Notes: generated by a model not told the origin, from the sequence alone. A stretch of DNA of 64,000 bases from Mycobacteriales bacterium (GCA_035550055.1 DASZRO010000120.1:2890-66889); one strand, 5' to 3'. Positions 1 to 3,722 are shown, counted from the stretch's first letter. Translations and numbers: made by a program.

Positions 1-760
1 ACTGACTGCCGGCGGTCAGGGCGCTGCTCGCGGCCACCGACCAGGAGCCCGACGTCTCGGTCGTGGTGCGGGTCTGGACCGGGGTACCCGTCGCATTGGG
101 CCCGGCGTAGATCTTGACGGTGACCGTCGAGGAGTCCGCACTCTGCGTCGTCCCGGCCGCCTGGTTGCCTGCGGTGCCGGTGAAGGTCGGCGTCAGCGAG
201 GTCGTGATCGACCCGGCGGTTGGTGCCGTCACGGTGACCGAGGGCGCCCGGCTGTCGATGACGAACGTCGTGGTCGCCGTCGCGGCGTTTCCCGCGGCGT
301 CACTCTGACTGACCTGCGCCGTGTACTGCGCGTTGCCGGCGAGAGCAGGTGAGGGCGTGACCGACCAGCTGCCCGAGGTCACGTTGCCGCTGATGGTCTG
401 CACCGGGGGGCCGGTTGCCGTGCCACCTGAGTAGATCGTCACGGTCACGGTGGCTGCATCCGCGCTGTGGCCGGCGTCGGCGACCTGCGTGCCGGCGGCG
501 CCGGAGATCGTGGGCGTCGTCGATGCCAGGTATGCGCCGTTGCTCGGCGCGGTGACGGTCGGCGCGGGTGCGGCGGTGTCCTTGACCGCAGTGACGGCCA
601 ACGTCGTGGAGCTGCCACCGGCGTTGGTCGACCATGCGGTGACGGTGAGGTGACCGTCGTGCAGCGAAGACAGGTTCAGCGCGGTGAAGGCGGTCGTGCC
701 GGCGCCGCTCGGCGCTGTCTTGGCGCTCGGCGTGACGGTCGTCGTGCCGTCGCTCACGGT
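1..760. repeat. Tandem coding repeats with a period of about 324 bp (about 2.3 copies in the window, roughly 70% nt identity). They encode the Ig-like repeats of the large surface protein.
   Basis: Segments at about 104-170 and about 431-495 align (gtagatc...gacggtgaccgtcga.. versus gtagatcgtcacggtcacggtggc..). The protein-level repeats begin at residues about 238, 279 and 387. Confidence 0.55.
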
Positions 761-1288
761 CAGATGGACCATGTCGGCGGCGGTCGAGGTCGCCGGCAGG
801 GTGACGTCGATCTCGACGCTCGAGGCGTTCGCAGCGTCGATGTACGCCTGCCCGGTGCCGCCGCCGACGACGGTGACGGCAGTCGGGGCGGCCGGCGGGG
901 TCGTCGCGCTGACGATCGCGGTGGCGGCGGAGATCCAGCTCGACAGCGTGCTGTACACGTCGTACGACGGGGTCGTGCCGGGCGTGACGCCGGTCACCGA
1001 GCAGCTCCCGGTTGCACCGCTGATGGTGCAGGCCGCAGTGGAGGTCGTGCCGTGGGGGTAGGCGACGTAGCCGGTGGCGGCGGGCGCCGAAGGGCCGCTG
1101 GTGACGGAGATCGTGATGCTGGTGGCGCTCGCCGCGGTCGCGGAGGCCGCGATCGGCGCGCCGAGCGTCGTCGACGTGGCGAGCTGGCTCGCCGTACCCG
1201 TCGCCGTGAAGAAGGCGAGGGCGGAGGCTGCGCCGGCCACGGCGAGTGCCGCAGTGACGGCGAGGACGGAGTAGAAGCGGCGCCTCAT
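1..1288 (-). CDS. Large secreted cell-surface protein, N-terminal part only (the gene continues beyond the window start). It has a signal peptide, then Thr/Ala/Ser-rich tandem Ig-like repeats of about 108 aa with the motif D-A-A-G-N...V-I-D-S-R-A-P.
   Basis: ATG at 1286-1288 on the minus strand overlaps the stop of the upstream gene (ATGA). The reverse-strand translation reads MRRRFYSVLAVTAALAVAGAASALA|FFTATG..., followed by repeated TVTV(T/K)IY(S/A)G...SGSWSV...DAAGN...APSVTVTAP units. Third-codon positions are GC-rich. The ORF track omits it only because it runs off the window edge. Confidence 0.6.
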   Translation of the reverse strand, partial: MRRRFYSVLAVTAALAVAGAASALAFFTATGTASQLATSTTLGAPIAASATAASATSITISVTSGPSAPAATGYVAYPHGTTSTAACTISGATGSCSVTGVTPGTTPSYDVYSTLSSWISAATAIVSATTPPAAPTAVTVVGGGTGQAYIDAANASSVEIDVTLPATSTAADMVHLTVSDGTTTVTPSAKTAPSGAGTTAFTALNLSSLHDGHLTVTAWSTNAGGSSTTLAVTAVKDTAAPAPTVTAPSNGAYLASTTPTISGAAGTQVADAGHSADAATVTVTIYSGGTATGPPVQTISGNVTSGSWSVTPSPALAGNAQYTAQVSQSDAAGNAATATTTFVIDSRAPSVTVTAPTAGSITTSLTPTFTGTAGNQAAGTTQSADSSTVTVKIYAGPNATGTPVQTRTTTETSGSWSVAASSALTAGSQ

Positions 1289-1761
1289 CACAGGTGCGCC
1301 GTGCCGGTCAGCGGGACGACGAACGTCGTTCCCTGGCAGCCGTCAGCCGCCGCGGTGGTCATGGAGACCGTTCCGGTCGCCGTTCCTGACTGGCCGGGGG
1401 TCAGCGCACCTGATGGGAGGGCGCCCACCGCGAAGGTGACGACCGCGGGGTTGCAGCTGCCCTTGCCGGTGGTCTGGATCGTCGCGGTGCCCGACTGCGT
1501 CAGGGAGGTGACCGTGAGGTTTCCCGAGGTGGTGTTCTTCAGCGTCACGCTGACCGCAACGTTGCCGCCGGGGTAGAGCCCCGCGAGTGGTGCGGTGGTG
1601 ACTGCGAGGGTGACCGTCCCGGTGGAGGACCCCCCGGTGCCCGCTGCCCGACCGGACCAGTAGGCGTTGGCAGTGCCCGCGCCCGCCGCACCGATGGCGA
1701 CGAGGGCGAGCGCGACCGCGGTCCCGCGCTTCGCGCGCGATGAGATCCGGGAGTGCGACAT
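1288..1761 (-). CDS. Small secreted protein of 157 aa, a paralog of the gene at 2385-2840. It has a signal peptide ending ANA|YWSGRAAG, a GLYPGG motif, two Cys about 40 aa apart, and is Thr/Gly-rich (beta-sandwich, DUF11/CARDB-like pattern).
   Basis: ORF 1288..1980 from the track, trimmed to the internal ATG at 1759-1761 (MSHSRISSRAKRGTAVALALVAIGAAGAG...). It sits 7 nt downstream of the stop of the preceding gene. Its own stop overlaps the next ATG (ATGA at 1286-1289). Confidence 0.6.
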   Translation of the reverse strand: MSHSRISSRAKRGTAVALALVAIGAAGAGTANAYWSGRAAGTGGSSTGTVTLAVTTAPLAGLYPGGNVAVSVTLKNTTSGNLTVTSLTQSGTATIQTTGKGSCNPAVVTFAVGALPSGALTPGQSGTATGTVSMTTAAADGCQGTTFVVPLTGTAHL

Positions 1762-1768
1762 CGGTCGG

Positions 1769-2356
1769 TCAGCCTTGCCGTGCGGTGGCGTGGAAAGTGA
1801 GGGGGAACGACGCGTCCTTGCACGCGTTCTGGTTGGTGGGGAGGTCGAGCATCGAGATCCGCAACGGGATCCGGGCCGCCGCGCCGGGCGCGAGCTCGTA
1901 ACGCGTGGCGCCTGGCGCCGAGGAGCGGTATCCGGTGACCCGGATGCTCGTGGCCGCGCGGCAGGCCTTCGTCGCATCACCGACGGTGACGCCGGCGGAG
2001 GTGATGCGCGCGGGCCGGGAGCCGAGGTTCACGATCGACACGACGACGGGTCGGCTCACTCCGGGTGACAGAGCGCCTTTCTCGCGGCCGGTCACGGTGA
2101 TCGCCACCGGCGCCGATGGCGCGCTGTGCCGGCTCGTCGACCGCGCCGTCTGCGAGTTGCCGGGCATCGGGTTGCGCTCTCCCGCCGGAGGGTTCGCGGT
2201 CGCGCCGCAGCTGTTGCCGCAGCCGTTCAGCCGCAGGACGGCCGTGACCAGACCGGCAAGGAGGACGGCGAGGACGGCCAACCACAGCCACAGCAGCCCT
2301 GGGCGACGTACGTCGTCTTGCTCAGGTCGTCTGCGTTGGATCGCGTGGTCCGTCAT
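1769..2356 (-). CDS. Membrane-anchored protein of 195 aa. It has an N-terminal cytoplasmic tail, one TM helix (LLWLWLAVLAVLLAGLVTAVL), and an extracytoplasmic domain with DUF11-like motifs (ALSPGVSRPVVVSIVNLG, ELAPGAAARIPLRISML). This is a possible accessory or anchoring component (TapA-like role).
   Basis: ORF track 1769..2356. ATG at 2354-2356 is preceded by GGAGGA (reverse complement of 2362-2367). No SPase-I catalytic Ser box is recognisable. Confidence 0.5.
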   Translation of the reverse strand: MTDHAIQRRRPEQDDVRRPGLLWLWLAVLAVLLAGLVTAVLRLNGCGNSCGATANPPAGERNPMPGNSQTARSTSRHSAPSAPVAITVTGREKGALSPGVSRPVVVSIVNLGSRPARITSAGVTVGDATKACRAATSIRVTGYRSSAPGATRYELAPGAAARIPLRISMLDLPTNQNACKDASFPLTFHATARQG

Positions 2357-2384
2357 CGCCGTCCTCCTCGGCCGGCACGAGAGG

Positions 2385-2840
2385 TCAGCTGACGCTGTAG
2401 GTCACCGGGATGGTCTGCGACTTGCAGGCGTCCTGGTTGCTGCTGGTGTCGTTCATCGTCAGGGTGATGCCGGTCCAAGCGCCGACGCCGCTGCCTGGGG
2501 CGATCTCGGCGTTGACCGGGGCGGTGCCGGTGATCGTGAAGTCGCCCGCCACGCAACCTTCAGGCAGCGTGCCGAGGGTGGCCGTGACGGTCCCGACGTA
2601 CACCTTGCCGGAGTTCGTGTTGTTGAAGTCGCCGGACAGCGTGACGCTGCCGCCCGGGTACAGGCCCGAGGAGGTGCTGGTCTGCACGACCGCGACGTTC
2701 TGGACGCTGCCGGTAGCCGCGGTTCCCGACCCGCTGCCGGTGGAGGTCCAGTAAGCGAGGGCGATGCCGCCGCTGGTCAGGGCAAGAGCGCCACCGCCGA
2801 GGATGGCGGCTGCCTTCTTCTTGTTGTTGATCTTTCGCAT
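2385..2840 (-). CDS. Small secreted protein of 151 aa, a paralog of 1288-1761. It has a signal peptide (KKK n-region, AAAILGGGALALTSGGIALA h-region), an AXA site ALA|YWTSTG, a GLYPGG motif and two Cys.
   Basis: ORF 2385..2891 trimmed to the ATG at 2838-2840. This ATG is preceded by GGAG (ggagcagacaATG) with 6-nt spacing. It is the first gene of the operon. Confidence 0.65.
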   Translation of the reverse strand: MRKINNKKKAAAILGGGALALTSGGIALAYWTSTGSGSGTAATGSVQNVAVVQTSTSSGLYPGGSVTLSGDFNNTNSGKVYVGTVTATLGTLPEGCVAGDFTITGTAPVNAEIAPGSGVGAWTGITLTMNDTSSNQDACKSQTIPVTYSVS

Positions 2841-2926
2841 TGTCTGCTCCGCTCGCGTTGTGAGCCCCCCAAAGCGGGGCACCGACGTCAAAGGTGACGG
2901 CCTCGGCGCAACAGTTACGCGACGGA

Positions 2927-2950
2927 TTCACAACACTTGGACAACTTCCG
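2927..2950. promoter_or_regulatory. Tandem direct repeat (T)CACAAC-n6-GACAAC, about 12 bp centre-to-centre, lying between the response-regulator gene and the secreted-protein operon. It is a candidate OmpR-family binding site.
   Basis: Sequence ttcacaacacttggacaacttcc at 2927-2949. A second ggatt repeat is at 2923 and 2968. The region is AT-richer than its surroundings. Confidence 0.25.
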
Positions 2951-3020: not shown

Positions 3021-3722
3021 TCAGCCTTCGAAGCGGTAGCCGACTCCGCGAACCGTCTGCAGGTAGTGCGGCCGCCTCGGGTCCGCTTCGATCTTCGTGC
3101 GCAACCGGCGGATGTGCTCGGTGACGGTAGACGGGTCCTGCCACCTCGTGGAAGAGCCCCACACCTGGTCGAGCAGCTGCTCGCGGGTGAAGACCCGTCG
3201 CGGGGACCCGGCGAGCAGGGCCAGCAGGTCGAACTCCTTCGCCGTGGTCTCGACCACCTCGCCGTCGACAACGACCTCGCGCGCGGCGATGTCGATGGTC
3301 AGTGCGCCGTAGCGCAGCCGCTTGCTCGGCGCCGGCGAGGCGCCTTCCTGGCGGCGCATCACGGCGTAGATCCGGGCCACCAGCTCCGCGCCGCTGAACG
3401 GCTTCACGACGTAGTCGTCCGCTCCCATGCGCAGGCCGAGGACTCGGTCGGTCTCACCGCCTCGCGCGGACAGGAAGATGATCGGGATGTTGTCCCGGCG
3501 GCGGATCTCGGTCATCAGATCGAAGCCGCTGATCTCCGGCATCATGATGTCGAGCAGTACGACGTCCGGCCGGCGTTCGCTGATCGCGGTCAGCGCGCCG
3601 CGGGCATCCGCCACACACTCCACGGCGAAACCCTCGTCAGTGAGCAGCGCCTCGACGAGATCGCGAGTCGGTGCGTCGTCGTCGACCACGAGGACGTGCA
3701 GCTGCCGCCTCGTACGCACCAT
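3021..3722 (-). CDS. OmpR/PhoB-family response regulator (receiver domain plus winged-helix). It is an orphan: no histidine kinase is adjacent.
   Basis: 233 aa. It shows the VLVVDDD...DVVLLDIMMP...DYVVKPF receiver motifs and a C-terminal ...LTxKEFDLLxxLxxxPxRVFTREQLL..VWG... OmpR-type DNA-binding domain. Confidence 0.9.
   Translation of the reverse strand: MVRTRRQLHVLVVDDDAPTRDLVEALLTDEGFAVECVADARGALTAISERRPDVVLLDIMMPEISGFDLMTEIRRRDNIPIIFLSARGGETDRVLGLRMGADDYVVKPFSGAELVARIYAVMRRQEGASPAPSKRLRYGALTIDIAAREVVVDGEVVETTAKEFDLLALLAGSPRRVFTREQLLDQVWGSSTRWQDPSTVTEHIRRLRTKIEADPRRPHYLQTVRGVGYRFEG

Follow-up and report, generated by a model that had tools for sequence, protein, structure and literature searches.

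We analyzed a 64,000-nt stretch of DNA from a Mycobacteriales bacterium (GCA_035550055.1 DASZRO010000120.1:2890-66889), referred to here as the window, and examined a cassette of four minus-strand genes, A, B, C and D, that lies at its start (Table 1). The proteins share a beta-sandwich domain, a motif directly after the signal peptide, or both, and we tentatively propose that they build a fibre on the cell surface. An earlier reading made from the sequence alone (the sequence-only reading) had described these four co-oriented genes, with gaps of 28 nt between A and B and 7 nt between B and C. A public contig from an uncultured Mycobacteriales metagenome-assembled genome (MAG), GCA_964558155.1, carries an identical region with the same four calls (151, 195, 157 and 546 aa), which confirmed that layout.

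Other details of that reading needed correction. D had been called a giant protein and is only 546 aa long on the public contig, where its gene ends ~350 nt past the window edge. The ATGA stop/start overlap assigned to C and D is really a 1-nt overlap of the TGA stop with an ATG, or a 4-nt overlap with an upstream GTG (cacctGTGATGagg), and translational coupling of the pair is still plausible. A mycelial actinomycete as the source is not established, the source being an uncultured Mycobacteriales MAG. We placed the start of gene A at the ATG at 2840, not at the start of the longer TTG-2891 open reading frame (ORF), because homologues start at MRKINNKKK.

Table 1. Features of the cassette and of its surroundings in the window (slash, predicted cleavage site; TM, transmembrane).
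Feature	Position (nt)	Strand	Description	Basis
Gene A	2385..2840	(-)	151 aa; proposed major subunit; Sec-type signal peptide, residues 1-29; conserved mature N-terminus; Ig-like beta-sandwich, residues ~48-151; C96-C139; NQDACK motif	ORF; same protein called on public contig
A cleavage-site/N-terminal motif	2709..2762	(-)	A-L-A / Y-W-T-S-T-G-S-G-S-G-T-A-A-T-G; proposed donor/recognition segment	
Gene B	1769..2356	(-)	195 aa; proposed anchor; basic N-terminus, one TM helix, linker, beta-sandwich; C132/C179	
B TM helix	~2234-2299	(-)	residues ~20-41	
B Cys-rich segment	~2204-2233	(-)	residues 42-51, RLNGCGNSCG	
B beta-sandwich	~1793-2107	(-)	residues ~84-188	
Gene C	1288..1761	(-)	157 aa; proposed minor subunit; signal peptide; TANA/YWSGRAAGTGG motif; paralogous beta-sandwich with C103-C142	
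Gene D	1..1288, runs off window	(-)	429 of 546 aa in window (N-terminal part); proposed tip/adhesin; signal peptide; SALA/FFTATG; domain read by eye as FN3-like; two Big_13 Ig-like repeats	
GTTG[TC] direct repeats, x3	2945-2941, 2934-2930, 2912-2908	(-)	phased 11 and 22 bp; upstream of A	
TTGACG	2892-2887	(-)	after the repeats	
GCCCC-N5-GGGGGC hairpin	2880-2864	(-)	after TTGACG	
Response regulator, OmpR/PhoB-type	3021..3722	(-)	Response_reg + Trans_reg_C; no adjacent kinase	
LepB	53040		signal peptidase	

A domain family and a common mature N-terminus

By BLASTP, A and C are 34% identical (E=7e-9), and both contain a GLYPGG motif and a pair of cysteines, in agreement with the earlier view of them as clear paralogs. 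The membrane protein B had been related to the same beta-sandwich, and its ectodomain is indeed a third paralog (30% identity to A, E=8e-8): the A/C domain recurs once more in the last ~105 residues of B. The paired cysteines stand ~40 residues apart in each of the three proteins. Searches with jackhmmer starting from A, B or C converged on the same ~200 ORFs, distributed over 83 loci of our local set, and a superfamily hidden Markov model (HMM) matched exactly A, B (E=9e-23) and C in the 64-kb window, and not D. As judged from their sequences, A, C and the B ectodomain are paralogs of one Ig-like beta-sandwich of ~110 aa with a conserved Cys pair.

We also obtained AlphaFold2 (AF2) models of A and C, with predicted local distance difference test (pLDDT) values of 78.6 and 74.4. 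Each model consists of an N-terminal helix corresponding to the signal peptide, a disordered stretch of pLDDT <50 over the N-terminal motif, and a seven-strand beta-sandwich. On structure comparison these predicted folds are generic, non-enzymatic beta-sandwiches, which fits the non-enzymatic role supposed before. When A, B, C and D were scanned against Pfam and NCBIfam, the sole significant match was Big_13 in D (E=5e-15), where Ig-like repeats had already been read; the A/B/C family is without any Pfam or NCBIfam model. Comparison of the family profile with PDB sequences returned only single-chain variable fragment (scFv) linker artefacts at E ~1. Beside the conserved disulfide, residues N74, N76, D137 and K140 of A are invariant or near-invariant across the A family. 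It is conceivable from this pattern that they form an isopeptide bond of the kind known from Gram-positive pilins, threads or BsaA.

The signal peptides of A, C and D end in IALA/YWTSTG, TANA/YWSGRAAG and SALA/FFTATG. The translations read exactly as had been reported, and the consensus of the three is AxA/[YF][WF][ST]xxGxG. AxA is the classical signal peptidase I site. Among 255 diverse A-family proteins, Ala was found at -3 in 96% and at -1 in 94%, followed by Y/F at +1 in 98%, W at +2 in 98% and T/S at +3 in 99%, so the aromatic pair is conserved in homologues; beyond +3 the pattern continues as G-x-G-x-G-x-A-x-T-G. An independent alignment of 51 A-family sequences showed W31, G37 and G39 to be invariant. 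No other part of the family is as conserved as the first ~16 mature residues, which surpass the folded domain in this respect, and the motif is found on the equivalent A, C and D genes in most of the 83 loci. We take A, C and D from these comparisons to be exported proteins in which a canonical AxA is followed by a near-invariant [YF][WF][ST]xxGxGxG, a handy marker for a special class of exported proteins. Residues 27-42 of A have AF2 pLDDT values <50, and such unstructured segments of low pLDDT are typical of donor strands.

At their N-termini, D-class proteins from the various loci have a hydrophobic segment followed by AWA/[FY]W[ST] and by a first domain of the TVTVSW type. D of the window contains no A-type domain detectable with the superfamily HMM, no TM segment and no C-terminal sorting signal.

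B-class proteins, whose N-termini we compared across loci, lack the AxA-YW motif in every case and consist of a basic N-terminus, one TM helix, a linker of variable length and the sandwich. Ten of 65 carry a C-terminal LPxTG/LAxTG sorting signal (LAYTG, LPATG, LAATG, LASTG, LPTTG, LAFTG, LPVTG, LPGTG or LPDTG, with a hydrophobic stretch and then an RRRR tail behind it), B of the window not being among them, and the same survey of C-termini found no such signal on A-, C- or D-class proteins. Because the motif-less component alone carries tethering devices, we regard B as the probable anchor, a role that the exclusive occurrence of predicted sortase signals in the B class supports independently. 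In a protein of 406 aa (P0382), an apparent frameshift fusion has joined an A-like and a B-like part, and the B-like end carries LPTG, a hydrophobic stretch and RRRRR. P0382 was considered as a natural tandem fusion in which a single-chain AF2 model might reveal strand docking, and was rejected for this use on account of the apparent frameshift. Directly after its TM helix, B of the window has the Cys-rich segment RLNGCGNSCG, which is kept in most close Mycobacteriales relatives and is absent in locus L009 and in other lineages. From its sequence this segment could be a local disulfide, a metal site or a degenerate lipobox; LNGC as a lipobox was rejected as a general feature of B because it is conserved in close relatives only and is absent in L009.

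A word-index search for the A family gave 301 matches. Those for which names were shown had none or were called "hypothetical protein", except for two automatic names from the Joint Genome Institute (JGI), FliL and SipW-like signal peptide. The family comprised 5,079 representatives of 50%-identity clusters at E<=1e-3 and 2,020 at E<=1e-10, and 389 loci in GTDB species-representative genomes. The cassette is thus common, and it was also seen on a mobile element and as tandem copies. Its hosts are several Chloroflexota and, among the Actinomycetota, Mycobacteriales, Nocardioides, Arthrobacter, Promicromonospora, Knoellia, Cryobacterium, Acidimicrobiia and Solirubrobacterales. Gene order was counted in the 69 retrieved loci (of 83) with at least 3.5 kb downstream of the A-like gene. 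A motif-less B-class paralog came next after A in 47 of them, the order A, B, C, with a C-class gene third, was found in 33, and in 47 a large motif-bearing protein (335-1,998 mature residues) was encoded within 4 kb downstream of A. Co-clustering in related genomes, as the sequence-only reading had anticipated, was therefore observed, the order that recurs in both Actinomycetota and Chloroflexota being A, B-like, C-like, large motif-bearing protein. Because co-clustering and motif both recur in dozens of distant genomes, we judge them to be ancient and selected, far beyond what chance would give.

Several loci depart from the usual arrangement. At L005/L006:2012-14244, a reduced cassette of an A-like gene and a gene for a 776-aa motif-bearing protein lies inside an apparent integrative conjugative element with an integrase, a TrwC-type relaxase, ParA, HTH_17 and an FtsZ/tubulin-like gene, a position that suggests horizontal spread of the cassette. 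Loci L013, L035 and L070 each have two cassettes within 20 kb, and L086 has three consecutive A-like genes; these are tandem duplications of whole cassettes or of the A gene in one genome. A full locus with A and the large protein (L081) occurs in a MAG labelled uncultured delta proteobacterium, which is likely to be mis-binned or mislabelled because all other loci are from Actinomycetota or Chloroflexota.

Comparison with TasA and other filament systems

The sequence-only reading had likened the cassette to TasA and SipW, and our comparisons did not show such an identity. With the camelysin/TasA model PF12389 (gathering score 22.5 bits), A, B and D gave no match and C gave 13.6 bits (E=0.061). 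Weak PF12389 matches were seen in 20 of 51 family members (E<=10; best E=9e-5), and the four that we inspected, at 13.6-19.1 bits, covered only HMM positions 5-84 of 196, collinear with protein residues ~8-88. TIGR04088, a signal model of 34 positions with a cut-off of 19 bits, matched none of A, C and D at E<=1, gave no match with B either, and matched two of the 51 members weakly (best E=0.0014); a genuine neighbour in the Nocardioides locus L084 scored 33.8 bits. TIGR04089 (cut-off 60 bits) gave no match with A, B and D, left C below threshold and gave weak matches in three of the 51 (best E=0.0023). Weak matches to TIGR04090 also occurred, and the members that touched any of these three TIGR models were few. 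None of the models named in the earlier reading (TIGR04088, TIGR04089 and PF12389) reached its threshold with the proteins of the cassette.

For profile-profile comparison with hhalign, we used as reference families a collected TIGR04089 set and 117 TasA proteins annotated with PF12389, the TasA query having been checked against PDB 8AUR. A profile of 120 A-family sequences aligned with the 117 TasA proteins at a probability of 2.5% over the full length and 0.4-0.6% over the mature regions, and with a single TasA sequence at 9.6%. The alignment was limited to a short L-x-P-G-[GD]...F-x-N-x-G motif. Between the mature A family and TIGR04089, only the first 11 residues (YWTxxGxxxG) aligned, with a probability of 1.6%. 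Foldseek searches with the A model listed the TasA fibre 8aur at the top and AbpA third, in both cases non-significantly, and the 8aur top match was not reproduced with C.

A SipW-like HMM detected no SipW-like peptidase in the 64-kb window, and none had been called among the neighbours of the operon. LepB paralogs were likewise absent next to the cassette. The called genes of the parent contig past the window start, a convergent LeuA-like gene and then a PAP2 gene, likewise included no peptidase, sortase or other fibre-related gene, so neither side of the window edge has the SipW-like peptidase or sortase that the sequence-only reading had called for near the operon, an absence that counts against that reading on its own terms. 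Only two of the 83 loci, L084 and L048, have a SipW-like peptidase (TIGR02228) adjacent to or a few kb from an A-like gene. The stretch concerned in L048 is L048:13258-14548. In Nocardioides (L084:1960-5907), a TIGR04089 protein, two SipW-like peptidases of the archaeal type, one of them with a C-terminal extension fused to it, and a PF12389 protein are encoded directly upstream of A-like and C-like genes, at a locus without a B or D gene. Apart from this arrangement, nothing in the genomes ties the cassette strongly to SipW-type processing.

Over its 40-45 N-terminal residues, the L084 TIGR04089 protein matched A-like proteins (LLLGGAGTLAYWTDTG versus LLGGAGTAYAYWTNTG; E=6e-5 to 9e-3, searched against a small database). 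When jackhmmer was iterated from the L084 TIGR04089 and TasA-like proteins, it pulled in the A family. We rejected this as homology and attribute it to signal-peptide drift, because the link obtained with single-pass phmmer is confined to the signal region. Read at the level of sequence, the likeness of the signal region to the SipW class is a resemblance and not membership. TIGR04089/TIGR04088 proteins with a TIGR02228 peptidase are thus similar to the cassette proteins in those 40-45 residues, belong to the same phylum and are adjacent in L084; they differ in having mature domains unrelated by profile-profile comparison, A, C and D fall under the cut-offs, and the usual cassette has no peptidase gene. 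A search of the literature found nothing relevant on TIGR04088/TIGR04089 or on TasA-like systems in actinobacteria.

In TasA the donor strand consists of residues 28-38, the first 11 after cleavage; the same strand is present in TapA, which nucleates the fibre (PMC9674648). The cassette resembles the TasA/TapA/SipW system (PF12389; 8AUR) in several respects: a Sec-exported, beta-rich subunit with a functional segment starting at the first post-cleavage residue; an operon accessory protein with the same N-terminal segment, TapA there and D and C here; the signal layout GG-x-x-A / aromatic-aromatic-[ST/N]; and the short L-x-P-G-[GD]...F-x-N-x-G motif at an equal distance from the N-terminus. In contrast, no homology of the mature domains is detectable, and the subunit here, only half as large, is a plain Ig-like sandwich of seven strands with a disulfide pair as opposed to a jelly-roll of 234 aa. 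The cassette operon also has no SipW gene, its accessory protein is a large Ig-repeat protein, and it includes a dedicated anchored paralog (B), for which the Bacillus TasA system has no equivalent.

In Sulfolobus threads, homologous subunits have the same 7 residues directly after the cleavage site, and the proposed cap is a paralog that lacks an acceptor site (PMC9715654), while the archaeal bundling pili (ABP) of Pyrobaculum use a generic peptidase, none being dedicated, and have an accessory protein with distal domains (PMC9245690). The threads (Saci_0406 with Saci_0405) and the Pyrobaculum pili (AbpA/AbpB) are like the present system in their type I signal peptide, generic peptidase and lack of a chaperone or usher, in their strictly conserved first post-cleavage residues, and in a paralog or accessory protein with extra distal domains that is proposed as cap or nucleator; AbpA was also the third match for A in the non-significant Foldseek search. 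Unlike the cassette, these systems are archaeal, with no sequence relationship to it, the threads use isopeptide bonds and N-glycans, and no membrane-anchored paralog is described for either.

Haloarchaeal Tafi loci encode a major pilin, a minor paralog, a tip protein, an anchor with one TM helix and a beta-domain, and a regulator (PMC12337348). This is nearly the same parts list (TafA/TafE pilins, TafC tip, TafF anchor, TafB regulator, TafD/G peptidase), likened here by description only: five of six parts are matched by A, C, D, B and the response regulator when parts and not sequences are compared, the peptidase being absent. Tafi differs in being archaeal and Tat-dependent with its own signal-peptidase pair, whereas the anchor here is clearly paralogous to the subunits. 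The fold matches listed for A and C included no Tafi entry, nor did the profile search of PDB sequences give one, the presence of Tafi in the PDB copies searched being unconfirmed.

Sortase-assembled Gram-positive pili share with the cassette a tip-shaft-base logic, Ig-like subunits and, on some B-class proteins, LPxTG/LAxTG; they differ in that A, C and D have no sorting signal and the conserved element here is N-terminal, not C-terminal. A crude motif scan found no ORF with the TLxTC sortase signature in the window or in nine inspected loci with a sorting-signal B-like protein, nor was there a sortase Pfam match among the called neighbours. We rejected a sortase-dependent pilus since the shaft and tip proteins carry no sorting signal and this crude scan of the window and nine loci gave no sortase-signature ORF. 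A type IV pilin or Tad pseudopilin was also rejected. The class III signal (short basic leader, G/[FM], Glu at +5 and a hydrophobic mature helix) does not fit, and relative to a type IV pilin the order is reversed: basic n-region, hydrophobic h-region, AxA and a polar, Gly-rich mature N-terminus.

A proposed fibre and alternative readings

Our preferred reading, to which we give slightly less than even confidence, is that the cassette encodes a cell-surface appendage, a thin fibre that would assemble by strand donation without a chaperone, usher or sortase polymerase. The N-termini of A, C and D are alike, absent from the anchored B and unstructured in the monomer models, and it is these three properties that suggest the strand-donation logic. 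In such a scheme the proteins would be exported by Sec and then cleaved by the housekeeping LepB or by a peptidase encoded elsewhere, and each freed N-terminal segment would dock with the sandwich of the subunit that follows, in the manner of TasA, archaeal threads, ABP and Tafi. A would repeat along the shaft, and C would serve as a minor or adaptor subunit. D has the donor segment and lacks the acceptor domain, and so it would start the fibre and end up at the distal tip as an adhesin. B has the acceptor domain and lacks the donor segment, and so it would terminate the fibre and tie it to the membrane here, or to the cell wall via sortase in some lineages. Growth would take place at the cell-proximal end, where subunits leave Sec. 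Of the fibre/adhesin module put forward in the sequence-only reading, the co-clustered exported paralogs, membrane anchor, repeat-rich large protein and common N-terminus have stood up, and the TasA/SipW label and the giant tip have not.

Some observations weigh against polymerization, which we propose from genes and from single-chain AF2 models. The supposed donor segment is rich in Gly, Ser and Thr and has only two hydrophobic residues (Y and W), whereas hydrophobic residues alternate along classical donor strands. In the AF2 monomers the seven-strand sandwiches already seem complete and no open groove was demonstrated, and no dedicated peptidase or assembly factor was found in the locus. 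The conserved N-terminus could also be purely a processing or sorting signal.

The same observations would suit a surface complex that does not polymerize, in which A and C bind the anchored B and the adhesin D in fixed stoichiometry and the motif is a signal for export, processing or modification, such as a recognition site for one particular signal peptidase or a patch for O-glycosylation. We find this, the main alternative, somewhat unlikely. In its favour, the Gly/Ser/Thr-rich segment is not strand-like, the sandwiches of the AF2 monomers seem complete, the searches revealed nothing similar to proven fibre subunits, and the likeness of the motif to the SipW-dependent class is confined to the signal region. 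However, signal peptidase I needs little beyond -3 and -1, and a stretch of ~16 mature residues more conserved than the folded domain is unusual for a cleavage context alone. The presence of one motif on three proteins of the operon and its absence from the anchored paralog also fit an assembly code. A different possibility is that the N-terminal segments are not cleaved, so that A, C and D are type II membrane-anchored proteins with Y-W at the interface and form a membrane-tethered coat or adhesin array. Aromatic residues are often found at the membrane interface, no dedicated peptidase is nearby, and AF2 modelled the N-terminus as a helix. We judge this the least probable of the readings considered. 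Ala at -3 and -1, at the frequencies given above, is a signal peptidase I signature that an anchor would not need, and B shows what an uncleaved anchor of the family looks like, with a longer TM helix, no AxA-YW and a long linker; a separate anchor paralog would moreover be redundant if all components were anchored.

A very divergent but genuine TasA/SipW member, with a minimized TasA jelly-roll and a SipW-like (TIGR02228) peptidase elsewhere in the genome, is also improbable in our view. The 20 collinear sub-threshold PF12389 matches, the few members that touch TIGR04088, TIGR04089 or TIGR04090, the homologue named SipW-like signal peptide by JGI, the ranking of 8aur first and AbpA third for A in Foldseek, and the genes near SipW-like peptidases in L084 and L048 all point toward it. 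Set against these are the failure of every protein to reach a curated threshold, the negative hhalign results for the mature domains (probability <=2.5%), the non-significance of the Foldseek matches and their lack of reproduction with C, and the rarity of an adjacent SipW-like gene (2 of 83 loci, and none in the 64-kb window). The subunit family is without a demonstrable relative, and the parts list matches that of known strand-donation filaments.

To our knowledge, little has been described of surface filaments in non-pathogenic Actinomycetota and Chloroflexota beyond sortase pili, Tad pili and the chaplins of Streptomyces. We raise, as a possibility that we would not yet call probable, a broader form of the fibre proposal. 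The cassette may represent widespread, undescribed pili in these two phyla, built from disulfide-bonded Ig-like subunits of ~120 aa that are unrelated in sequence to TasA and to chaperone-usher, sortase and type IV pilins. They would form tip-first by insertion of the Gly-rich N-terminal YWT-GSGSG segment after cleavage by the housekeeping signal peptidase, a paralog without the segment would terminate and anchor them, and they would be an independent invention in monoderms. If the proteins do form fibres, the chaperone-free strand-donation filaments (TasA, ABP, threads, Tafi and cannulae) would gain a new subunit fold and two large soil phyla, together with a simple four-part system (tip, shaft, adaptor and anchor) for fibre start, termination and tethering. 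Even without polymerization, a widespread unnamed family merits a model and a name.

The upstream region in Mycobacteriales

The sequence-only reading had also noted an OmpR-type response regulator upstream and LepB further along the window, and both are present. The regulator gene lies 180 nt upstream of the cassette on the same strand in all six Mycobacteriales loci and nowhere else. A scan of the operon for promoter and terminator consensus sequences gave no sites, a result that is uninformative because the genome is 70% GC. The segment upstream of A (window 2861-2945, minus strand) contains the three GTTG[TC] direct repeats, TTGACG and the hairpin listed in Table 1. The regulator may control expression of the operon in Mycobacteriales, and possibly only in that lineage, as its distribution suggests. 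The GTTG[TC] repeats are conserved in the six Mycobacteriales loci, and the block has the layout expected for an OmpR/PhoB-type site; we tentatively consider it a candidate, lineage-specific operator for the neighbouring regulator.

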